Numbered from the stretch's first letter, positions 50,002 to 61,336 are shown. The stretch is 64,000 bases of DNA from Actinomycetota bacterium (GCA_003598015.1 QZKE01000066.1:11820-75819), one strand, 5' to 3'. Program-made: numbers and translations. The notes: generated by a model from the sequence alone, not told the origin.

Positions 50002-50075
50002 TGGGGGATCGTCTAACGGTAGGACGCGAGACTCTGGATCTCGTTGTGAGGGTTCGAATCCTTCTCCCCCAGCCA
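50002..50075 (+). tRNA. tRNA-Gln(CTG)
   Basis: Cloverleaf: acceptor tggggga/tccccca, anticodon loop ctCTGga, GTTCGAATC, encoded CCA. Confidence 0.95.
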
Positions 50076-50095: not shown

Positions 50096-50173
50096 GGCGC
50101 ATTAGTCTAGTTGGCCTAGGACGCCGCCCTCTCAAGGCGGAGATCGCGGGTTCGAATCCCGCATGCGCTACCA
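50096..50173 (+). tRNA. tRNA-Glu(CTC)
   Basis: Cloverleaf: acceptor ggcgcat/atgcgct, anticodon loop ctCTCaa, GTTCGAATC, encoded CCA. Confidence 0.93.
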
Positions 50174-50177
50174 GGAT

Positions 50178-50202
50178 AAAAGGCCCCTCGCGGGGCCTTT
50201 TT
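50178..50202. terminator. Intrinsic terminator after tRNA-Glu
   Basis: aaaaggcccc-tcgc-ggggccttttt. Confidence 0.9.
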
Positions 50203-50342
50203 ATTTCCAGCCAATATTTATAACCGAACGTGCGATTGGATTGATGGACAAATTATGGGGGAGGCTGAAAGGAAAATCCCTCGAATATCAACGGATATCA
50301 TGAGCTTTCTATGATATCTATGAAGCGAAGATTTATCTCGCC

Positions 50343-50972
50343 TTACTTCGCTGTCGCACTAATCCTGACTATTCCACATCCGCCGCTATCTTCATTCTGG
50401 GACCATGTCCCGGGATCTGAGTCTATTACCTCGTATGTCCCGGCCGGCAGGTCTATATCTGGGTAGGCGTTCCAGTAGGCATTGGGCACCCCGCCCTGAC
50501 CCGTCGTGCCTGTGGTTTGCCATGGTCCGTATATCTCTCCGCTGGTCGTGTCTTTGAGGGCAATGGTACCCGGTGCTGCGCCCATGTTGAGGTAGTGATA
50601 GTCCACAATACTGTAAATATGGCGCTCTTCGGAAAGGGTGAAGACGGTCGGGGCGCTGACGCCGTTGTACACGGCTAACGGGTTACCGTTGTCGAAGACG
50701 AGCTCGGTGGCCGGCGCTTCTTCTTTCGTCTGTTCCTCCCCTTCATTACTCGTCTGGTGTTCTTGCTCCTCGGTTTCTTGGGGCTGCGAAACCTCTTCAG
50801 AATCATCTTCAAGGTAAGCCGTTTTCCCGCACGAGCACCCTTGCCCATGTTCTCCACATCCATTAGAGGCCAGGGCTATTAAACAGAACAACAAAGCAAC
50901 AGGGGTTAACTTAAGAACGAGTGCGGCCTTGGGTCTATTCGCAAAGGGTTCTGGAACTCGCTTCACGGCCAA
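50343..50972 (-). CDS. Putative lipoprotein with acidic linker and uncharacterised C-terminal domain
   Basis: Hydrophobic stretch ending ASNG-C; Glu/Gln-rich linker; GPW...GQGGVPNAYW...GTYEVIDSDP domain. Confidence 0.75.
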   Translation of the reverse strand: MAVKRVPEPFANRPKAALVLKLTPVALLFCLIALASNGCGEHGQGCSCGKTAYLEDDSEEVSQPQETEEQEHQTSNEGEEQTKEEAPATELVFDNGNPLAVYNGVSAPTVFTLSEERHIYSIVDYHYLNMGAAPGTIALKDTTSGEIYGPWQTTGTTGQGGVPNAYWNAYPDIDLPAGTYEVIDSDPGTWSQNEDSGGCGIVRISATAK

Positions 50973-51117
50973 CCTCCTTACGCATAAGAGCTATTCGATA
51001 CCATGAAACACCCATCCAGACGTTATTATAATACTATCTGTAAAGAGGGTCGATGCGAGCGGCAGGAGTCTAACACTTGCCGCTATCGTTACTTGGTCTC
51101 ATGAAGAGAACCGCTTA

Positions 51118-51197
51118 AGAAAGAACTCAGAAGTTATGCAGTTGGACACGGAGCATTCATGCCCTGCAAGCAAAGAGGCCCCTCACGGGGCCTCTTT
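51118..51197 (+). mobile_element. att-like junction 1: shared arm + degenerate tRNA-Glu 3' end + terminator
   Basis: 33 bp identical to 52027-52059, then catgccctgcaagcaaagaggcccctcacggggcctcttt resembling 50162-50201. Confidence 0.75.
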
Positions 51198-51297
51198 AAC
51201 GGCTTTTGGTGCTAGATAGCCTGAAGCGCCTGATATTAGAACTCGGTCAACCGACGACGCCGCCTTTTTGCCGGCTCGACGTATAAGCAGGAATAGT

Positions 51298-51888
51298 TCA
51301 ACGGATCTTGAACATCACCGCTTCCCCGCCGAAGGGCTGAAAGGTCAGAACAAGACCCTTCTCTCCCGTGGGTACTTCGTAAACAGCTGTAACGGAAGCT
51401 TCCTTGCCCGCATCGATCGGCTGCGCATTGTACAACCCCCCGTAGCCGTTGGTTACCACGAGACTGTACTGCTTGCCCTGGCCGTCCTCCAAGGTGAGAT
51501 CGACGGGTTTGACCCCGGTCGAGATATCGGAACCCGTGTTCTTATAGAGGAAGGTGATCATTAGAAATTCGTTGCCGGCAGAAGGTGCCTGCGAGCTGTT
51601 TGTGCTCTCGCCAGCTTCGCCGGTAAGTAGAAGGGCGTTTGCCTCAGGAGAAGCGAGATCATTGGTCACCGTGACTTTGGATACGGATACCTTGCCGTCT
51701 TCTACAGACGCGGTTTCCCCCACGTCCAGGACCTCTGCTTCCGTTTCTTTCTCGGTTTCCGTCACCTCGGTCTCCTCCGTCTGCTGCTCCGGCGTGGTGG
51801 TTTCGCTCTTCGAGCCACATCCGCTGATAGCCAGGAGAACCATCAGCAAGGATACGAGTAAGATGACCGCAAACAATCTCCTGTTCAT
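51298..51888 (-). CDS. DUF4352-like lipoprotein
   Basis: Lipobox ISG-C; Thr/Glu linker; FLMITFLYKNTG...LEDGQGKQY...VYEVP beta-sandwich pattern. Confidence 0.8.
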   Translation of the reverse strand: MNRRLFAVILLVSLLMVLLAISGCGSKSETTTPEQQTEETEVTETEKETEAEVLDVGETASVEDGKVSVSKVTVTNDLASPEANALLLTGEAGESTNSSQAPSAGNEFLMITFLYKNTGSDISTGVKPVDLTLEDGQGKQYSLVVTNGYGGLYNAQPIDAGKEASVTAVYEVPTGEKGLVLTFQPFGGEAVMFKIR

Positions 51889-52014
51889 GCCCGTCCTCCT
51901 TTCGAATAGACGACAGCAAAAGTGTACTCTTAGAATATGGCAATACTCATCGATGTATTCTCTTGGATCAGGGCTATTTCCTCCTTCCGATATCTTAACT
52001 GGCAGGGAACTTAC

Positions 52015-52104
52015 AACAGCCGTTCGAGAAAGAACTCAGAAGTTATGCAGTTGGACACGAGCGCACATGCGCTACCAGGAATAAAGGCCCTGCGAGGGGC
52101 CTTT
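52015..52104 (+). mobile_element. att-like junction 2: shared arm + tRNA-Glu 3' end + terminator
   Basis: catgcgctaccagga at 52066-52080 is identical to 50162-50176; followed by aaaggccc...gggccttt hairpin. Confidence 0.85.
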
Positions 52105-52391
52105 CTCCTTATCATTAAATGAGGAGAATCCCGTTTCTGGAACATAACGGTTTTCTATCCTATCGTAGTGGGAATGATTTGGGGATAGCGGTCCTTTTCG
52201 ACGTTATCTTTGTTGCGCTGTATGTCGCAATTTGTTCAAATCTGATCTACATGGTAATGTTACTATATAGTAATATTATTTACATAAAATCAATCTAGCC
52301 ACATGCAAATACATTCTGCTTGGATATGCTGAGAATGTTTGGGGCAAATATATCCTATATATAGGGGCACATCAGAAAAGGGGGAGCTGCC

Positions 52392-54236
52392 ATGATCGAA
52401 GATACTATTTTGCTTACCACTCCAACCTTTCCTTACCCGACATTACCTCCAAATGACTCGCTGACAGATGCTATGGGTCAGCGATTCACGCATGGGGACG
52501 ACCTGTTTACACTCAATTCGCATACGCATTGCTATGCAAACCATATTCTTGCGCAGAATGTAAACAAACCATGTATTCTTTTAGAATACCCCAGGTGGAA
52601 GGATTTTACAAAAGAGGTTGATAAACAATATGCCGTTATCGGTATAAGCGCCTTTCCTGTTCATCTGGACAACGTCATGAAGATGTGTGAGTACATAAGG
52701 GAGAAATCACCCGAAACCACTATCCTTCTTGGAAGTTATGCCGCTCAGGCTTTTGCCGCCAAATACGGTGAAGAACCGGAGTTGAAGTACGTGGATCATG
52801 TGGTATTGGGCGAAGGGGTCAGGTGGTTTCGAGACTTTCTGGGAGAAGGTGATCTTGATCGCCCCATTGAGCAGAAACTGATGCCAAAATGCGGAGGAGG
52901 GCCTATCTGCATAAGCAGGTATCCGGGAGGAAATATCGGATTCTTTGTATCAGGGCTGGGCTGCCCGGGCGGATGCGACTTCTGTTCAACAACCGTAATG
53001 TTCAACGGGAAGCGCATTGAGATGCTGACGTCACAGGAATTTGTTGAACACGTGCGCGCTTACTATGAACACTTTCCGCTTGTGAAGAACATATTCGTGA
53101 TCGAGGAGGACCACTTCAGGCACCACGATTACCTACACGCGATACGCGATTACTGGCAAGCCCACCCTGACATCATCGAGCGGCTTGACTGGTTCGCATT
53201 CGGCTCCATCGATAATATCGCTGAATTTGCGGACAAATACGGATGGGATTACATCTCCGAGATCGGCATCGGCTCGATATTCATCGGAGTGGAATCGAAA
53301 TTTGCCGGCGAGTATGGATACGACAAGCGCGAGAAGATGGACGCGCGCGAGGTTTTCAGTAAACTCCATGAACGTGGGATACGCACAGTAGGCGCATGGA
53401 TATGCGGCTGGGATTTCCACACCCATCAGAACATGCTTGAGGACCTCAATTATTTCGTGGCATGCTATCCCACCTATGAGCAGCTCACTCGCATGTCTCC
53501 CTTCCCGGGAACAGTCCTGTACGACAAGCTAAAGGAGGAAGGAAGAGTGCGGAATGTTCCCTGGGAGGATGTTCATTTCTGGAGCAGCGCACAGGTGAAC
53601 ACACATCTTGAAACCCATGAGACGCTGAACCTCACGGAATACGGCTATAAACTGCTCTACGAAACATGGGGGCCCTCTCTTCTGCGCAGGCTCGATGTGG
53701 TGCTCAATGGGTACGAGTACTGGATGAAGTCAGATAACAAGACAATGAGAGAGCATAAGACAAAGCTCTTCAGGCAGCAGGCTGCTCTTACCATGGTCAT
53801 CTCCTCAGCGATGTACCGTTTTGCTCCCAATGGCGTGGTCCGACGGAGGGTGGAAAAGATGAGGCAGAGATACAAAGAGGTAATCGGGGAACCCACGCCA
53901 AGCATGAAGATCGCCGATCGGTATGCGCATTTCGTGGCAAAGAGATGGAAGAAGAAGGATCTTTTTAATCCTTTTAACCAGTACCCGAAGGAGGAGCCCT
54001 TCAAGCGCTACATATATGATAAAAAGGACACAAATGGCGCAATGCCATACAGGACAGAATACCCTCATACCAAGGAGCTGAGAACACGCTTCCAAATGTT
54101 CAGGGAAGTTGCGAGATTCAAGGTACTCGCATTCATAGTATGGATGGTAAAGAACCTGCTGTTTTGGAAGAACGATCCTGAAATCGATGATTATCTCATC
54201 GAGGCCATAAGGTATAGAACCTTTTATGGTTTCTAG
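52392..54236 (+). CDS. B12-binding-type radical SAM protein
   Basis: GCPGGCDFC (CxxxCxxC); N-terminal VIGISA..ILLGSY..VLGEG region; IGVES; PFPGTVLY. Confidence 0.85.
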   Translation: MIEDTILLTTPTFPYPTLPPNDSLTDAMGQRFTHGDDLFTLNSHTHCYANHILAQNVNKPCILLEYPRWKDFTKEVDKQYAVIGISAFPVHLDNVMKMCEYIREKSPETTILLGSYAAQAFAAKYGEEPELKYVDHVVLGEGVRWFRDFLGEGDLDRPIEQKLMPKCGGGPICISRYPGGNIGFFVSGLGCPGGCDFCSTTVMFNGKRIEMLTSQEFVEHVRAYYEHFPLVKNIFVIEEDHFRHHDYLHAIRDYWQAHPDIIERLDWFAFGSIDNIAEFADKYGWDYISEIGIGSIFIGVESKFAGEYGYDKREKMDAREVFSKLHERGIRTVGAWICGWDFHTHQNMLEDLNYFVACYPTYEQLTRMSPFPGTVLYDKLKEEGRVRNVPWEDVHFWSSAQVNTHLETHETLNLTEYGYKLLYETWGPSLLRRLDVVLNGYEYWMKSDNKTMREHKTKLFRQQAALTMVISSAMYRFAPNGVVRRRVEKMRQRYKEVIGEPTPSMKIADRYAHFVAKRWKKKDLFNPFNQYPKEEPFKRYIYDKKDTNGAMPYRTEYPHTKELRTRFQMFREVARFKVLAFIVWMVKNLLFWKNDPEIDDYLIEAIRYRTFYGF

Positions 54237-54239
54237 CTT

Positions 54240-55352
54240 GTGCCATACGAGTGGGCGGTCAGAATCGTGAAAAACAATATAACCACTACAGCAGAGAATA
54301 CGCCTGTCCGTAATATACCGGATGATTATTATCCTCCAGGATGCGGTTTCTGGTATACATTACCCGAAGGACCGGATGCAGGTAAGAAGATGTTTTATCG
54401 TTACAGCACTCACGGCGAAGGCACTCCAGAAAACACCATGGTCTTTGTTCACGGCAATCCTGAGTCGTCATACATTTATAGAAATATCATCAAGGAAATC
54501 ATCGCGAGGGCCAACAAGCCTTTCGCTGTCCTTGCCATGGACCACATTGGATTTGGACTTTCGGATCAAGCGAGTTATCAGATGGAGTGCCTTAATCACG
54601 CTGACAACCTGCTGCTTTTAATAAGAGAATTAGACCTGGAGAACGTAACCTTAGTGGTGCATGATTGGGGCGGACCGACTGGCATAGGAGCATTTCTAAA
54701 AGAACCCGAGCGGGTATCGAATCTTGTGGTGACAAACAGCACGGTATTTCCCATGCCTGAGTCCGGACCCACCTATAAGAACTACCCGATAAGCTGGCTC
54801 GGATGGTCACAAGTACCGCTTATTATGCCCAGATGGTTTTGGGGCTCCTATTCCTCGTATGCTGTTTTTCGGACTCCTGCAAAGCCATTTACTCTGATCA
54901 CGCAATTATTGTTGTATCTGCTGAAGGCTGAGATCGGCATATTCTCAGGTACAGAAGATGAAAGGAACGCTAAACGGTTGTTTAGGGAACAATTCAAGTC
55001 TAAACCTAATGTATTATGCTCAAAGCGCTTTGTGCGGCAGTCAGGAGTCTGGGGCCATGGTAATACATTTAGAGAGCCCACTCTGGGATTGCAGGATACA
55101 TCGCCGTTCTATAGATTCATTCAAGAGAATATTGGAAGTATATGGGGCCCAAATGGACAGAATATCGGGGTCAGAGCAGTGCTGGGGCGATGGGATGCGC
55201 TTGGCAAGGACGAGGTAATAGAACAGTGGATAGACAATCTGCCGCAGCTTGAAGGACACGTAAAAGTGTTTGAAGGTGTAGGGCACTTTGTTGAAGAGGC
55301 CAGACCCAGGGAAATAGCCGACAGTATCATAGAAGTTGCTAAATTGCTTTAG
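54240..55352 (+). CDS. Alpha/beta hydrolase, haloalkane dehalogenase/OleB-like
   Basis: FVHGNP, DHIGFGLSD, VHDWGG (Asp nucleophile), VGHFVEE; start uncertain. Confidence 0.85.
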   Translation: MPYEWAVRIVKNNITTTAENTPVRNIPDDYYPPGCGFWYTLPEGPDAGKKMFYRYSTHGEGTPENTMVFVHGNPESSYIYRNIIKEIIARANKPFAVLAMDHIGFGLSDQASYQMECLNHADNLLLLIRELDLENVTLVVHDWGGPTGIGAFLKEPERVSNLVVTNSTVFPMPESGPTYKNYPISWLGWSQVPLIMPRWFWGSYSSYAVFRTPAKPFTLITQLLLYLLKAEIGIFSGTEDERNAKRLFREQFKSKPNVLCSKRFVRQSGVWGHGNTFREPTLGLQDTSPFYRFIQENIGSIWGPNGQNIGVRAVLGRWDALGKDEVIEQWIDNLPQLEGHVKVFEGVGHFVEEARPREIADSIIEVAKLL

Positions 55353-55355
55353 GAT

Positions 55356-55426
55356 GGGACCAGGTCTCGATAATCAAGTTTTCAGTAATGATATGTCAGA
55401 TTATGCGATATTCGAGACCTGACCCC
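55356..55426. repeat. REP-like inverted pair between convergent genes
   Basis: gggaccaggtctcga ... tcgagacctgacccc. Confidence 0.65.
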
Positions 55427-55432
55427 GTCCTA

Positions 55433-55849
55433 TTAGCTGGCGGGGAACGCTGCTTTGACCGTCTCGATGACCTGCTTGGCCAGGTTGCCCGCCTCCTCGG
55501 CTTCAATGGGATCGTCGTAGAATCGTGATGGGACTCCACCGGGAAGGCCGTTGGGATATCTCGTGGGAATATAGTATCCATCCAGTGATTTGGATCTCTT
55601 CACGCGGGAGAAAACGGGGTCTACTTTCTCGGCCGCTTCTACCAGCTCCGCCACTGAATGGGTCATGAAGACGTCGGGCTCCTCCAGCTTCAGGTAGAGG
55701 TAAGCTTTCAATGCCTTCTCCGCCGCTTGCTGAAAGTTGAACAGGGCGAGGTAAAACCGCTCCCGCTTGCGCAGATCTTCGGCATCTGCGAATTCGTCCA
55801 AGGCCTGCAGGAGCCAGCGCCCTGCCCCTTCTTCAGGAATCCTTTTCAA
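55433..55849 (-). CDS. HEPN domain protein
   Basis: WLLQA.D, FNFQQAAEKALKA, THSVAEL, YIPTRYP; TTG start overlaps the MNT gene. Confidence 0.88.
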   Translation of the reverse strand: MKRIPEEGAGRWLLQALDEFADAEDLRKRERFYLALFNFQQAAEKALKAYLYLKLEEPDVFMTHSVAELVEAAEKVDPVFSRVKRSKSLDGYYIPTRYPNGLPGGVPSRFYDDPIEAEEAGNLAKQVIETVKAAFPAS

Positions 55850-56195
55850 AGACCGACCTCCCACCCTCCAAGACATGCTGCAGGAATACATTGGCCTTGA
55901 CCTCTTCGGCCAGCTCGACGGTATTGAACACCAGGATATCCGAGGCTATAGCCCGGTCGATCTTCGAATAAATGAGGTGGGACCATTCTCTACCCGAGCG
56001 TTCCTGCGGCATTATCACCAGGATGTCCAGGTCGCTTCTGGAATGTATGGTACCATCTGCGAGAGAGCCGAACACCACGACCTTGACCGCCCCCATACTC
56101 TCCAGCTGCGGCAGCAGGCGTTCCAAGGAGGACTGCAGCAATTCCTTCCTCTCGGTTTTCTTGCGCTCGATCTTCTCTAAATCTAGCTTCGTCAT
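55833..56195 (-). CDS. Minimal nucleotidyltransferase (MNT)
   Basis: VFGSLADG...SDLDILV motif; directly upstream of HEPN. Confidence 0.9.
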   Translation of the reverse strand: MTKLDLEKIERKKTERKELLQSSLERLLPQLESMGAVKVVVFGSLADGTIHSRSDLDILVIMPQERSGREWSHLIYSKIDRAIASDILVFNTVELAEEVKANVFLQHVLEGGRSVFEKDS

Positions 56196-56544
56196 ATCTG
56201 ACCCCCATCTCTATTCCCAATATCTACAATACCACAAGAAAGATGCGGAGGGTTTCAGGCCCGGTCGTGCACCTGACATGTAGTAAGAGAGTGCGACGGC
56301 ACTCTGTATTAGCACTATTACTATCGTATAATCCACACTGTTCACCCGACAATATTAAGAGAATATATTTTATTCTTTATCTTCTATTCTGCATCTCCAT
56401 TTATTGCAGAACTTGATATATAGAGCGATATCTATTAACGCAATATGCTCCAGCAGCTCCCATAAACTTTGCGAGGAGCAGGATTCGCCGTATCGGAACG
56501 CCGCCTCCTCGCAGGTTATGGGTAGATTACGCCTTATAAGAGCC

Positions 56545-57612
56545 TTAGCACCATTTCTTCAGTTTGGTGAAACCTGGTACCACCAGATTCAGGAACCCCT
56601 GGAGCGGCGGGAGCGCGGATATGGGCACGAACGCTGCCTTCAACACGGGTTTCTTGATGGCATGTGGGGTAGCATCACTGAGCTTCTTTATAAAGAGAGC
56701 GTACTTTAGCATGGAAACAAGATCGTCAAACAGCTCCCTGGCCTTGGCCCTGTCATCCACGGCCAACGCAGCGATCCTCCCGGTGATCAGAGAGGAGACC
56801 ACCCCGAAACTAAATAGCGCATCGTTCACCCCCGCCAGGGTCCCGGCCAGGATCTTGTTATCGTAAAAGAGGTTCTGGTTGTTGAACGCGATGTTTCCCA
56901 CAGCACAATCGTGGGATCTGAAGTTACTAAACTCAATGCCTGTGCGTTCCAAAAGATGCCCCGTACGCCATGCCTCAAAGCCGCCCTCTTCTACAAGACC
57001 CTCGTGCTTGAAGTATAACGCCAGGGCGAGGCCGTTTGTGTTCCCGCAATAGCAGTAATCGTTGGTGTAACGGTCAAACCACGCGAGCGCCCGAGTCGGC
57101 CCATCATACCTTTTTACGGCAATTAGACAATTATACTTCCTGTATGGGATGCCGAAAAGTTTGAAAACCTCCTCGTTCAAACCTGAAGCTATGATGCTGT
57201 TCGGAGGTAGCTGAGAAAGGTCGGCCTTTGATCGCAGCTCCCAACCGAACTCGAACTTGACCCCTTCCTTCAGCGCTATCCCGTATAAATAATTCTCAAT
57301 CGACGTGGATCGCGCCCCCCTCTCCACGAGGTGACCACAAGCTCTCACCGGGTCGAACTCGAATTTTTTACCGTACATGAAAAATTCTATCTCCTCCATC
57401 GGCGTAACCTGCGGTGCCTTTAATTCGACACCGACAAATCTTCCCAAGATTTCGGGCTGCATGATTGTGCCGTCAACGCCGGGGTGAGCCACCGGTTCAC
57501 CTCCCACCCTCTCGTATCTCTCGAGGACCGTAACATCATGTCCGGACCGCGCGCAGTTTATCGCGGCTACAAGGCCGGAAAGGCCGGCTCCCACCACATT
57601 GATTTCCGCCAT
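56545..57612 (-). CDS. NAD(P)/FAD-dependent oxidoreductase
   Basis: INVVGAGLSGLVAA...VLER, LAGTLAG..D, SLITGRIAA; AGGAGGAG RBS. Confidence 0.8.
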   Translation of the reverse strand: MAEINVVGAGLSGLVAAINCARSGHDVTVLERYERVGGEPVAHPGVDGTIMQPEILGRFVGVELKAPQVTPMEEIEFFMYGKKFEFDPVRACGHLVERGARSTSIENYLYGIALKEGVKFEFGWELRSKADLSQLPPNSIIASGLNEEVFKLFGIPYRKYNCLIAVKRYDGPTRALAWFDRYTNDYCYCGNTNGLALALYFKHEGLVEEGGFEAWRTGHLLERTGIEFSNFRSHDCAVGNIAFNNQNLFYDNKILAGTLAGVNDALFSFGVVSSLITGRIAALAVDDRAKARELFDDLVSMLKYALFIKKLSDATPHAIKKPVLKAAFVPISALPPLQGFLNLVVPGFTKLKKWC

Positions 57613-57789
57613 TATCTCTCCTCCTTTCCGTTTACCGAGTCGTTTGCCAGACCATACCATTACTATCGCTTACCGCTAATGTATCTCATTTTCGTTGACA
57701 CGTTCCGCCCTGCCGACCTTTGCTTTAACACGATATGCACCTCGGCGGAGTGGACGTTGCCAGGCCTCAAGGTTGCCCCTTCACAATCG

Positions 57790-57945
57790 CCGTATTGATT
57801 GAAGCAGTTGGAAATGGCACATGACTCAACGGCACATTCCCCATACCACTTCTGTTTGTCTTCCACCGTCACAGGATAATGATTCTTGAAGGTCGCAAAG
57901 GGACGCGCATAGAATATTTCCCCCCGGGTCGGCGTTGGTCGGTAG
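57790..57945 (-). pseudogene. Internal fragment resembling alkylmercury lyase (MerB) family
   Basis: [38 protein letters not shown] resembles the MerB YPF...W..CA.D region; no start of its own. Confidence 0.45.
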
Positions 57946-57950
57946 AGTTC

Positions 57951-58258
57951 TGGCGGGTGGGAGCACACATGGCGGTGGTATGGAAACGGTTGTAGCGAAG
58001 CCCGTCGGAGGCGAGACGCTCGAACGTCGGCGTCCGGCACGGTCCTCCGAAAGCGCTGGAAGCGCCGAACCCGACGTCGTCGAGGAGTATTATGAGCACG
58101 TTCGGCGCGCCTTCGGGTGGGAGTAATGGTTCTATCGGCAGGAACGACGTCTCAGCGTCCTTGGCGTCATATGTTGTCAGTCCGACATGCTGCCTGTCGG
58201 GTACAGGAAGTACCTCCCGCATGATGCCGCCACGCTCCCTCGGTCCCTGTGATGACAT
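57951..58258 (-). pseudogene. Truncated arylsulfatase N-terminus
   Basis: [15 protein letters not shown]...[11 protein letters not shown] (CxPxR); similarity ends after about 103 aa. Confidence 0.85.
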
Positions 58259-58689
58259 CTCAACCCTCCTTGCCTTCTTCCTGGCAGTGCATGTCCATCA
58301 GTCCGCCTTTTGCCTTTCAAGATTCCGAATTAATCGACATTTCCCCATATGCACCACATGATGCCAATATCCTATCATCCAGCGGGCAGGTCAAGACATA
58401 TAGACACCGGTTATCTCTTTCCTCTCGAGGATTCTGCCGGACATGGCAGAAAAGACTTCCTCCAGGCCGATATTTGGAGAGGCTTGAGCGGTTACGGTAT
58501 GCTTAAGGGGAAGTTCAGAAATAAGTCGCTAAGCGTCCAGGATACTGCCAGCAGGATTGCAATGTTGCAGCAATCGTACCTTCGCACTTCTCACCGGCTA
58601 AGCCGTTTGTACCCTGCGGCCCCTCCTTTTTTCCTGGATTGCAGCAACATCGGCATCCCCGCCCGGGCGAGCCCCTCCCTGGAACATAA

Positions 58690-59142
58690 TCAACCCTTTT
58701 CCTTCTTTTTCCTGTCGCGCTCTTCAGCGGCTGCAGTAAACATGCCAGCCGCGATGCCCATTATCTCTTCAAGGTCAGAGTAGTTGACTTCTTCGCCGTC
58801 AATAGTCAGCGGCTTGCGGGGGATCTCCCCAGCCGGCGAGAAATCATCTTCCGAAGCGATTATCCCGAATTTACGCACTATGGTGTCTTCAACTATCTCA
58901 TCCAGCGGATTGGCCAGTCTTTCTGCGATGTCGATGTGCAGCGCAGACGGCAGTTGTGAGATATCGTCGAGTTCCATGATCCCGATGGAGATTATCTCAC
59001 GCGGATTGTGGAGGTTTACCACCGTGAGCATCCTCGTCGGGACCCCGAAACCATGCGTATGATACCAGGCCTCGCGATAATCATCAAATGATTTTCCATC
59101 ACGGAGCGTCCGCGTGATGATCGCCACACCTTTCACTTTCAT
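58690..59142 (-). CDS. Hypothetical protein
   Basis: AGGAGG RBS before ATG 59142; 150-aa ORF. Confidence 0.65.
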   Translation of the reverse strand: MKVKGVAIITRTLRDGKSFDDYREAWYHTHGFGVPTRMLTVVNLHNPREIISIGIMELDDISQLPSALHIDIAERLANPLDEIVEDTIVRKFGIIASEDDFSPAGEIPRKPLTIDGEEVNYSDLEEIMGIAAGMFTAAAEERDRKKKEKG

Positions 59143-59241
59143 CGCCTGCCTCCTTCCTCGATCAGCCTCGCCAATATTGTATCGGTAGTTGCTGCTGGAA
59201 TTCAGAGGCCATGCTTTAAGCGCCGGCCCGGCATTGGGAAA

Positions 59242-59332
59242 AACAGCCGTTCGAAAAAGTCCTCCGGAGTTTTGCAGCTGGTCACGAGCCCGCATACGCC
59301 AGCAAGATCAAGGGCTCCTGGCGGGGCCTTTT
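59242..59332 (+). mobile_element. att-like junction 3 (degenerate): arm + tRNA-Glu 3' end + terminator
   Basis: Hand alignment: arm 40/48 identical to 52015-52062; 59289-59332 36/44 identical to 50158-50201, ungapped. Confidence 0.8.
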
Positions 59333-60448: not shown

Positions 60449-60757
60449 GAAGCACCCCCTTGACATAAAAAGCGATGTCGACAGCCGCGAAGATAAGATA
60501 TCATAGCCCCAGACGGTTCTTAATACCTTATCGTCAGGAATGAAATATGCCTTTATAGCGGAACTTTTTCGATCTCGTCGAAGGCCGTGCCGGACCAGGC
60601 AGCCGTTACCCGGGGCAGGCAATGCTCGCCCCGAGCATACCGCGGAAGGTGCCACCCGGGCGTTCCCTGCGGGAAGAGCCGCGTTCACCTACGTTCGCCG
60701 TATGTCTTGTGTGGGTCAGCCTGTCGAATATCGAATATCCAGGAATAATATGGCACT

Positions 60758-61336
60758 TTACTCGATCTTCGAGACCCCGCCCTCATCACGCCTCTTCCTG
60801 ATGAAGTGAAAGATGATCATGCTTAGCGGGACCAGGGTGGCGAAGAAGCCGAGATAGGCGGCATAGCCGAGATAGGGGAAGATCATCACCACCTTTCCCT
60901 CGATCTTGTCGATGGGGACCGGGATTCGGTCTGGCCTTTCGGCGGCGTCACCCTTGGTGACGAAATAGGTCAGGTCGTCACCGCCCACTTCCCCCACGAT
61001 GCGGTGGACATTTCTGCCGATCACGGGGTCGGTGAAGGAGATGATATCGCCCGGGTGATATTCATCCTGCGGGATCACGATGACCATGCTCCCCGTTCTG
61101 ATGGTGGGCTCCATCGAGCCGGAGATGATCACCCGGGCATGTATCCACGGATTCAAGGCGGAGAAGAGCAAGAGCAAGAAGAGGGAGAGAAAGAATCCCA
61201 TCACCGCCCAGGCCGATCCTACCAGGATATAGTACGCCGCCCGGTGTTTTCCGCGCAGATACTTGAAAGAGATCTCCCTGGACCATATTGCGCCTTGTTT
61301 CCGGTCTCCGCTGTGCGAGGTTCCCATGGGCAGCAT
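60758..61336 (-). CDS. Signal peptidase I, SipW/archaeal (S26B) type
   Basis: ISGSMEPT, GDIISF, VHRI (His general base), TKGD. Confidence 0.88.
   Translation of the reverse strand: MLPMGTSHSGDRKQGAIWSREISFKYLRGKHRAAYYILVGSAWAVMGFFLSLFLLLLFSALNPWIHARVIISGSMEPTIRTGSMVIVIPQDEYHPGDIISFTDPVIGRNVHRIVGEVGGDDLTYFVTKGDAAERPDRIPVPIDKIEGKVVMIFPYLGYAAYLGFFATLVPLSMIIFHFIRKRRDEGGVSKIE

Follow-up and report, generated by a model that had tools for sequence, protein, structure and literature searches.

A tRNA-Glu-anchored array of small integrase-free gene units bounded by repeated att-like junctions in an Actinomycetota genome

How can small groups of genes come to lie one behind the other at the 3' end of a tRNA gene, each closed by a copy of that end, if none of them encodes an integrase? 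The question is raised by a locus in an Actinomycetota metagenome-assembled genome (MAG) of the Candidatus Solincola family (G000; GCA_003598015.1, QZKE01000066.1:11820-75819), which was analysed as a stretch of 64,000 nucleotides, here called the window; positions given below are those of the window. Downstream of an intact tRNA-Glu(CUC) gene a non-coding junction (J) containing the tRNA end occurs three times (J1, J2 and J3), and the first two of the intervals bounded in this way are tiny. We put at roughly 0.5 the probability that the array was formed by serial att-site integration of integrase-less units which were mobilised by an outside integrase, in a manner resembling the accretion of cis-mobilizable elements (CIMEs).

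Structure of the junctions

Each junction is made up of a non-tRNA arm of about 48 bp, 12-13 nt of tRNA end, a spacer of 5-10 nt and a GC-rich hairpin followed by a T run, and J1, J2 and J3 are all oriented as tRNA-Glu. The repeated core corresponds to the final 12-13 nt of tRNA-Glu (CATGCGCTACCAG). An earlier note on this DNA, made from the sequence alone, had described a threefold downstream recurrence of the tRNA-Glu end with its terminator, and this was confirmed by a repeat search, which returned two families: a 90-nt family, in which J1 and J3 are 67% and 76% identical to the J2 reference, and a 44-nt family, in which the tRNA end plus terminator (50158-50201) pairs with 52062-52105 and 59289-59332, at 82% each. 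The 33 bp that the note had found identical between the arms of J1 and J2 were found again, the likeness it had seen between the arms of J2 and J3 amounts to 80% over 41 columns, and its unit sizes of about 1.0 kb (unit 1, tRNA-Glu to J1), 0.9 kb (unit 2, J1 to J2) and 7.2 kb (J2 to J3) hold, as does its assignment of one lipoprotein gene to each of units 1 and 2. The beginning of the repeat had to be corrected. It had been placed in the T-arm, whereas identity with the tRNA begins only at CATGCGCTACCA, the acceptor stem's 3' strand with its CCA, short of the T-loop. J1 is odd in that an arm 90% like that of J2 stands beside a core only 67% alike.

When J2 was compared by BLAST with the whole assembly (3.79 Mb, 104 contigs, 89.5% complete), 13 matches were obtained at E <= 10, five of them at E <= 0.005. 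Every one of these five lies at the tRNA-Glu locus: J2 itself, J1 (4e-13), J3 (1.4e-12), the tRNA end and, in reverse, the terminator. The remaining eight were 14-23 nt long, with E values of 0.37-4.4. The arm is thus confined to this locus and does not occur genome-wide, which rules out that J is a dispersed repeat. A degenerate pattern of arm plus core matched twice in the window and not once in 100 shuffles. The locus shows a direct repeat of the 3' part of a tRNA together with a regenerated tRNA, a feature of tRNA-targeting integrative elements.

Other identities of the junction were considered and rejected. J is not a known RNA family, as Rfam matched only the two tRNAs of the region, nor is it convincingly structured as an RNA: the RNAalifold consensus of 14 junctions has 9 pairs and -6.1 kcal/mol and consists of just a GCGC mini-hairpin and the terminator, and single junctions folded no better than shuffled sequences (z between -0.1 and -1.2). 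A decayed tRNA half was tried as the source of the arm by local alignment to the tRNA body, in which 1174 of 2000 shuffles scored as high as the Glu arm; for the arms of the tRNA-Val junctions described below the corresponding numbers were 107 and 1638 of 2000. Coding sequence was dismissed on account of substitutions and a 1-nt indel without codon pattern, and a promoter because no promoter-like site lies inside any arm.

Precise insertion at the tRNA end

Two sister species, G002 and G009, have no J, and the gene for a B12-binding radical SAM (rSAM) protein starts 264 nt (G002) or 260 nt (G009) 3' of their tRNA-Glu. In the source genome the rSAM gene starts 318 nt after the CCA of J2. The segment 52066-52150 of the window, which comprises the J2 core, the hairpin and about 45 nt more, aligns with the 3' end and flank of tRNA-Glu in G002, and the segment 52293-52450 aligns with the start of the rSAM gene; G009 is collinear in the same way. 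Because the tRNA of G002 and G009 joins the flank that lies 3' of J2, the two lipoprotein units together are an insertion of 1.9 kb placed precisely at the 3' end of the tRNA. It follows from the same collinearity that J2 is the displaced original tRNA end, with the ancestral flank beyond it. To judge from the alignments, the 1.9 kb between a regenerated tRNA and a displaced end is the classic footprint of att recombination.

Presence or absence of whole units among relatives, on which the earlier note had staked its proposal, was thus found in these two genomes, which lack the two lipoprotein units and in which the tRNA is joined to the J2 flank; the empty site concerns units 1 and 2 only. 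The note's third unit fared differently. The 7.2-kb stretch between J2 and J3 does not form a single cassette, since ancestral tRNA flank makes up its left part; gene fragments are present in it as well. The rSAM gene and the hydrolase gene that follows it lie directly 3' of the tRNA in G002 and G009 and 3' of a SRPBCC-family gene in G001; in the genus the pair is the ancestral neighbour of tRNA-Glu on the right.

The junction in relatives and metagenomes

Every genome compared is a MAG, and integrase-bearing elements are commonly left unbinned in MAGs; the gene maps of relatives were built from simple open reading frame (ORF) calling and BLAST clustering. G-numbers denote genomes (G000 the source, the others relatives) and L053-L057 metagenome contigs. 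An arm-specific query found J in 6 of the 24 family genomes including the source, four of the others belonging to the same genus and one to another. A pattern scan with one genome per species returned four contigs (G001, G004, G005 and G010), all from Actinomycetota MAGs, G010 being Candidatus Solincola sediminis. Five metagenome contigs carry J, and L053 and L055 carry two copies each.

All copies in relatives and contigs lie 3' of tRNA-Glu or beside genes of the tRNA-Glu locus, and their cargo varies. The order in G001 is tRNA, SRPBCC-family gene, rSAM-hydrolase pair, J and a HEPN-MNT toxin-antitoxin pair; in G005 and L056 it is tRNA, SRPBCC gene, HEPN-MNT and J, and in L057 tRNA, HEPN-MNT and J. 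The tRNA of G004 is followed by an 8.6-kb integrase element, a partial tRNA of 49 nt or more, two genes (a 785-aa gene next to J), J and HEPN-MNT. L053 presents a homologue of the unit 2 lipoprotein gene, J, a flavodoxin gene with a 150-aa gene and a second J; L055 has J, a fucosidase-like gene, J and a flavodoxin gene; in G010 and L054 an ABM-like gene precedes J. The HEPN-MNT pair alone is found to the right of J in G001 and G004 and to its left in G005, L056 and L057. The same junction is therefore met with differing cargo on either side, at the locus or beside its genes, an observation in favour of the earlier note's proposal. Units of one or two genes are typical, and the spacing from J to J is 0.9-1.8 kb in the source genome, L053 and L055. 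The arrangement of small cassettes between homogeneous sites is a feature of the integron type.

Fourteen junctions were aligned, the partial copy of G008 being excluded. In the three pairs that have their left cargo in common the arms follow the cargo (78-85%) and the hairpins differ. In the sole pair with common right cargo (G001 and G004) the hairpins are similar and the arms only 59% alike. This linkage, seen in four pairs only, fits a crossover between arm and hairpin, inside the tRNA-identical core. J2 and the junction of G004 are 91% identical over 90 non-coding nt, compared with 75-85% for the flanking genes, and the arm of G010, a member of another genus, is 88% alike versus 77% for the adjoining gene. 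J is thus conserved above the neighbouring genes, which is what one would expect if the site were in use to this day or had recently spread; this conservation could reflect purifying selection.

In G008 the copy of J, on contig C90 (L033 177-3462 and 4122-4156), is incomplete and ends after 35 nt of arm. On the same contig, 4.9 kb long, two paralogues of 461 aa face in opposite directions and may be an insertion element.

Search for recombinases

No integrase, resolvase or transposase domain was detected with Pfam in the 20 ORFs between 46.4 and 63.6 kb of the window, so the statement of the earlier note that none of the units encodes an integrase or recombinase holds. The integrase gene that tRNA-targeting elements usually carry inside is absent from these units. 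Upstream of the array lie gltX and genes for a metallo-beta-lactamase-fold protein and an alcohol dehydrogenase, and no intI. In the whole source genome PF00589 matched two genes only, both on other contigs, which NCBIfam assigned to XerD (343 bits, above cut-off) and to a XerC-like protein (321 bits, just under cut-off); PF00239 gave no match, i.e. no serine recombinase was found there. The best integron-integrase scores were those of the same two proteins, 140 bits for XerD and 126 bits for the XerC-like protein, under the 265-bit cut-off for intI. Three proteins with a Y1_Tnp (HUH) domain, of 284-391 aa, and two IS110-type proteins are encoded elsewhere in the genome.

Integrase-bearing primase elements use the same tRNAs in relatives, namely tRNA-Glu in G004 and tRNA-Val in G001 and G004. 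The 8.6-kb element at tRNA-Glu of G004 (contig C34; L035 1-2600 and L029 13740-19901) stands in tandem with J-bounded cargo, carries genes for a HK97-type capsid protein, a CHC2 primase, a D5_N helicase and a 425-aa tyrosine integrase, and looks like a satellite or a tycheposon-like element. It is bounded by a repeat of about 100 bp that runs from the anticodon loop on, a repeat which J does not have. Contig C212 of G001 (L102 132-4018) codes for a CHC2 primase, a DUF3631 protein and a 306-aa integrase, the last ending 13 bp ahead of a complete tRNA-Val(tac). This integrase (94.6% over 515 nt), interrupted by the contig end, is also found on contig C32 of G004 (L109 8199-8624), and the whole probably forms the right end of a different integrative element.

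In the search for the source reads no run contained more than 0.20 of the sampled words. In four runs available as Logan contigs, relatives of the locus (85% likeness) with tRNA-Glu, lipoprotein 1, J1 and lipoprotein 2 were present in pieces, and one contig of 161 nt connects position 51090 to position 51765. No joint at any junction, and no circle, was seen in the Logan contigs of the four runs, which are unable to reveal rare excision products.

Similar repeats at other tRNA genes

The pattern is wider than the tRNA-Glu locus. For 9 of the 46 tRNAs of the source genome the last 16 nt are copied (<=2 mismatches) within 6 kb downstream, where rough arithmetic gives a chance expectation of about 0.3 loci. 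At tRNA-Ser(tga), Leu(taa), Ser(cga), Tyr and Arg(cct) the repeats of the 3' part are 35-77 bp long and 94-100% identical; these five loci, on contigs C1, C22, C45, C74 and C71 (L060-L064), enclose 2.5-5.7 kb each and are integrase-free. What they enclose resembles genes of defence or toxin-antitoxin systems: Fic with MNT-HTH, two TIR-cyclase-STAND (AAA-TPR) paralogues of 1210 aa, AbiEi together with a nucleotidyltransferase, and a PPDK-like gene accompanied by DUF7064. Ten proteins scanned at these loci and at Val(cac) were all cargo, including an amidohydrolase, with no recombinase among them.

A second junction family lies 3' of both tRNA-Val genes of the source genome, with two copies per locus. 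Its arm is a different one, joined to the final 13-15 nt of tRNA-Val and to a hairpin, and no arm motif common to this family and to the tRNA-Glu junction is visible. A 29-nt piece of this junction was found in 45 copies (<=2 mismatches) in 15 of 51 class genomes, all of this family, with a reversed-pattern control of 0; by genus it occurs in 9/9 genomes of g1, 3/3 of g5 and 2/2 of g7. The tRNA-Val arrays comprise up to six copies (G017), and in several genomes one copy is located 34 nt 3' of the tRNA. Among their cargo are a P-type ATPase, Fic, a glycosyltransferase, AbiEi, a FGGY kinase, a surface protein of 1260 aa and a Fic/MazE-like pair, none of them a recombinase. In G000, G003, G008, G013 and G019, which carry the tRNA-Val junction, the matches to PF00589 are the Xer pair only.

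Origin of the array

According to the explanation that we favour, the 3' end of tRNA-Glu(CUC) would be an attachment site at which small units accreted by site-specific recombination. The incoming unit would carry an attP composed of the 48-bp arm, a copy of the 12-13-nt tRNA end and the hairpin terminator, and it would enter as a circle, with the crossover probably falling within the short core. Such a crossover would restore the tRNA and set the unit's own hairpin behind it, which would make the hairpin now 3' of tRNA-Glu the one brought by the newest unit; the old tRNA end and its flank would be pushed outward behind the arm of the unit, giving junction J. The DUF4352 lipoprotein unit would have entered first and the other lipoprotein unit next, between the tRNA and the rSAM flank, and J3 would be an older, partly decayed junction farther out. 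Because the units encode no integrase and the assembly has only XerC/XerD, the integrase would have had to come from elsewhere, possibly from a co-resident helper or from a tandem integrase-bearing element that later left, as in CIMEs.

Several observations weigh against this explanation, and the mobility of the units is putative. The arms of J1, J2, the G004 junction and one L055 junction are 90-95% alike despite unrelated cargo, a likeness that needs constraint or homogenisation; attC sites in chromosomal integrons are homogenised. In G001 and G005 the gene adjoining the tRNA also adjoins it in other genera and J is further out, which misfits simple insertion at the tRNA. A recombinase next to the same arm elsewhere, which the earlier note had named as something to look for, did not turn up: no arm next to an integrase was found in 185,579 species genomes (where the pattern returned the four known relatives only), in metagenome contigs or in viral contigs, the last giving 0 matches for the arm patterns. 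The integrase elements at the same tRNAs in relatives have unrelated arms and far longer repeats, which start from the anticodon loop or comprise the whole tRNA, and are no obvious helpers. A 92-aa fragment of an integrase lies 0.8 kb to the left of J in G010. Moreover, the incomplete assembly of the source genome leaves room for an unbinned integrase.

The G010 fragment leads to the view that each J is the attR scar of an integrase-bearing island or satellite at tRNA-Glu, from which deletions removed the integrase and the replication genes and left the cargo. Elements with integrase, primase and in one case capsid genes do sit at tRNA-Glu and tRNA-Val in relatives, gene fragments are present between J2 and J3, the cores of J1 and J3 are degenerate, and the excerpted account of the tycheposon islands (bioRxiv 10.1101/2020.12.28.424599) describes tandem integrations with fragmented integrases and scattered partial tRNAs. 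Units 1 and 2, however, are only 1.0 and 0.9 kb long and consist of intact genes with short spacers and no integrase fragment, and every deletion would have had to stop exactly at the preceding hairpin. The same pattern of small units is repeated in L053, L055, G005 and the tRNA-Val arrays. The nearly identical repeats at five other tRNAs of the source genome point to recent events, yet there was no integrase among the ten proteins scanned, and genome-wide there is only the Xer pair. Finally, the arms of the known integrase elements are unlike J. Ordinary decay is therefore an unlikely origin of the array; it does play some part in the family, because an integrase fragment lies near J in G010. 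To this extent the decayed-island alternative of the earlier note stands, and for the units of the source genome, which hold no integrase remnant, it is the less likely reading.

The strong conservation of the junctions could also be explained if J were a module maintained by the host, such as a terminator or insulator, a protein-binding site or a tRNA-end-like RNA, that stems from a one-time duplication of the tRNA end, with the units being swapped by homologous recombination. Both junction families are conserved as well as or above coding genes across genera, in several genomes the tRNA-Val junction follows its tRNA within 34 nt, as though it belonged to the locus, the hairpin varies in sequence and keeps its form, and at least five junction-holding genomes are without an available recombinase. 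We nevertheless regard a host module as improbable. Copies within one genome, only 67-82% alike, would be a poor substrate for homologous recombination; the neighbouring genes stand in either orientation, which makes a role in an untranslated region unlikely; the absence of an Rfam match, folds no better than those of shuffles and a weak consensus of two GC hairpins only argue against an RNA; and a duplicated tRNA end with continuity of the flank is the classic att signature. It is more improbable still that the units are moved by a host recombinase of non-phage type, be it XerC/XerD, as for pdif modules and integrative mobile elements exploiting Xer (IMEX), or one of the three long Y1 HUH proteins. 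XerC/XerD are the sole tyrosine recombinases in the source genome and four other junction-bearing genomes, the source genome has the three Y1_Tnp and two IS110-type proteins mentioned above, and HUH enzymes recognise hairpins, with which J ends. Against this, none of the candidate genes is near the arrays, the two junction families have no common arm motif, and a dif-like 28-mer on contig C2, about 4.5 kb from xerD, is unlike both J and the tRNA-Val junction, although this candidate was found with a short motif and is a lead only.

Serial integration of outside-mobilised units may be part of something larger. We advance tentatively, and with more doubt than belief, the idea that the Solincola family practises a lineage-wide, integron-like gene capture at tRNA 3' ends, in which the Glu and Val junctions would serve as equivalents of attC, cassettes of one or two genes would be stacked and shuffled, and the recombinase would lie outside the cassettes, mostly with no recognisable integrase gene. 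The captured cargo ranges over toxin-antitoxin pairs, Fic, AbiE-like proteins, lipoproteins, transporters and enzymes.

Comparison with known systems

Chromosomal integrons hold mostly single-gene cassettes, which are recombinase-free and include toxin-antitoxin cassettes, and their sites are homogeneous within a lineage. The array resembles them in its small recombinase-free cassettes, in its homogeneous site-like repeat and in the toxin-antitoxin pair that it contains. Unlike in integrons, there is no intI or attI, the anchor is a tRNA gene, genes have both orientations and perhaps promoters of their own, although promoter-like sites are not above chance, and J has neither an attC-like imperfect palindrome nor a significant fold. 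Because three of the four integron features tested were not found, the comparison is a functional analogy only. Of the integron-like array formed by repeated use of one att system and mobilised in trans, as the earlier note had it, the precise insertion and the recurring junction are retained, and the integron-like character and the mobilisation in trans are putative. Modules bounded by pdif sites, likewise small, integrase-free and provided with repeated recombination sites, are moved by host recombinases. The units share with them the small integrase-free form between repeated sites, whereas J is a direct repeat tied to a tRNA end and differs from the dif-like candidate of the source genome, itself found with a short motif and a lead only.

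Islands at the tmRNA gene of Dehalococcoides reportedly lie in tandem, have short repeats of the gene 3' end as borders and each carry a recombinase of their own. According to the excerpted source (PMC3146451), these ssrA islands use the end of a small RNA gene as their integration site, and in this they resemble the present units. CIMEs, in the excerpted account, keep attL and attR, have lost the genes for integration and transfer, are arranged in tandem at the 3' end of a gene, with an arriving element entering an att site of the one already there, and are mobilised by the integrase of a neighbour (PMC5704250). In so far as that text goes, the units are like CIMEs of the ICESt1/St3 family (integrative and conjugative elements, ICEs) as well as streptococcal integrative and mobilizable elements in keeping att sites, lacking integration and transfer genes and standing in tandem at the 3' end of the target. 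CIMEs as described there are decayed multi-kb ICEs, whereas the present units are tiny, 0.9-1.7 kb with one or two genes. Nor was an integrase-bearing parent with this arm, of the kind from which CIMEs derive and with which they share att sites, present in the collections searched. The junction, moreover, is 88-95% alike over unrelated cargo and two genera, and the source genome has a second (tRNA-Val) family and many integrase-less tRNA islets. In the tycheposon islands of Prochlorococcus, successive integrations at tRNAs push older elements outward and partial tRNAs are scattered, according to the excerpted preprint (bioRxiv 10.1101/2020.12.28.424599). Tycheposons there pair a tyrosine recombinase with primase and helicase genes and sometimes a capsid gene, as does the 8.6-kb element of G004. 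Their remnants are reported alongside fragmented integrases, whereas the units of the source genome are integrase-free and their repeat is a conserved arm plus 12-13 nt of tRNA, not a partial tRNA alone. The array thus differs from CIMEs and tycheposon islands, as these sources present them, in its tiny intact units, its homogeneous junction over cargo and genera, the lack of a parent element and a recurrence that is genome- and family-wide. No description of such arrays was found in the literature on tycheposons, CIMEs and accretion, Solincola and integrase-less tRNA islands, supplements being outside the scope of that search.

Units that have att sites on both sides but lack an integrase are usually taken for the dead remains of larger elements. 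Here, contrary to that view, there are many tiny, intact units, the junction is conserved above genes, and the pattern occurs at several tRNAs and in several genera of an uncultured family, in genomes that mostly have Xer recombinases only. If the units are mobile, they would represent a minimal trade in single accessory or defence genes, a parallel to integrons that docks at tRNA ends, and would point to a helper recombinase yet to be found. If they are immobile, the locus keeps its use: it neatly documents, from nature, how integration was repeated at the very 3' end of a tRNA gene, and it shows that programs for island detection miss regions of this kind when they demand an integrase.

Genes and other features of the window

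The features are compiled in Table 1. The genes of the array lie on both strands, and units 1 and 2 have intact genes with a spacer of about 100-170 nt on each side and no integrase fragment.

Table 1. Features of the tRNA-Glu locus and of the tRNA-Val junctions in the source genome.
Feature	Position	Strand	Basis and remarks
tRNA-Gln(CUG)	50002-50075	+	ARAGORN; Rfam tRNA 60.1 bits; upstream partner of the tRNA pair
tRNA-Glu(CUC)	50096-50173	+	ARAGORN; Rfam 68.4 bits; intact; anchor, attL side
GC hairpin + T run 3' of tRNA-Glu	50179-50200	+	inverted repeats I1/I2; sequence reading
Unit 1 cargo, 209-aa lipoprotein-like protein	50343-50972	-	ORF; signal peptide with Cys in translation
Junction J1	51106-51195	+	arm, degenerate core, GC hairpin
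Unit 2 cargo, 196-aa DUF4352 lipoprotein	51298-51888	-	Pfam PF11611, E 2e-11; lipobox in translation
Junction J2	52015-52104	+	arm, perfect 13-nt tRNA core, hairpin; reference of the repeat family
B12-binding radical SAM protein	52392-54236	+	Pfam
Alpha/beta hydrolase	54240-55352	+	Pfam
Inverted repeat, 26-nt arms	55350-55432		I4; between the convergent hydrolase and HEPN genes
HEPN toxin-antitoxin partner	55433-55891	-	Pfam PF05168, 1.4e-21
MNT toxin-antitoxin partner	55833-56195	-	Pfam PF18765, PF01909
FAD oxidoreductase	56545-57660	-	Pfam
Weak MerB-like piece	57663-58040	-	Pfam
Sulfatase N-terminal fragment	57869-58258	-	Pfam, profile positions 1-57 of 301 only
ORF without known family	58349-58783	+	ORF call
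150-aa protein without known family, adjoins J3	58690-59142	-	gene + J recur in L053, 83% over 681 nt
Junction J3	59242-59331	+	arm 80%, core 70% vs J2; hairpin
tRNA-Val junctions, contig C7	L066 367-418, 1436-1487		also L108
tRNA-Val junctions, contig C20	L065 4383-4491, 6416-6537		

The hairpin that follows tRNA-Glu was not called by a simple terminator scan. The 209-aa protein of unit 1 had no match in Pfam or NCBIfam, and the probable start of its gene is a few codons inside the ORF. A promoter-like site was noted at unit 1, outside J (51053-51025, minus strand); it is weak, there being four such sites in the region against 2.6 expected. Farther on, the overlapping short ORFs at 57663-58258 are probably gene debris.

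In two sediment runs, contigs with the lipoprotein-1 gene have in-frame skips of 225 or 231 nt within 50723-50955 of the window, in an acidic linker, which suggests length variation in a low-complexity part.

The inverted repeat at 55350-55432 stands where G001 has J. A partial copy of it (74%) is located at 60724-60776, beside a signal-peptidase-like gene, and a 90% copy lies directly 3' of tRNA-Glu in G008 (L034 10616-10686).

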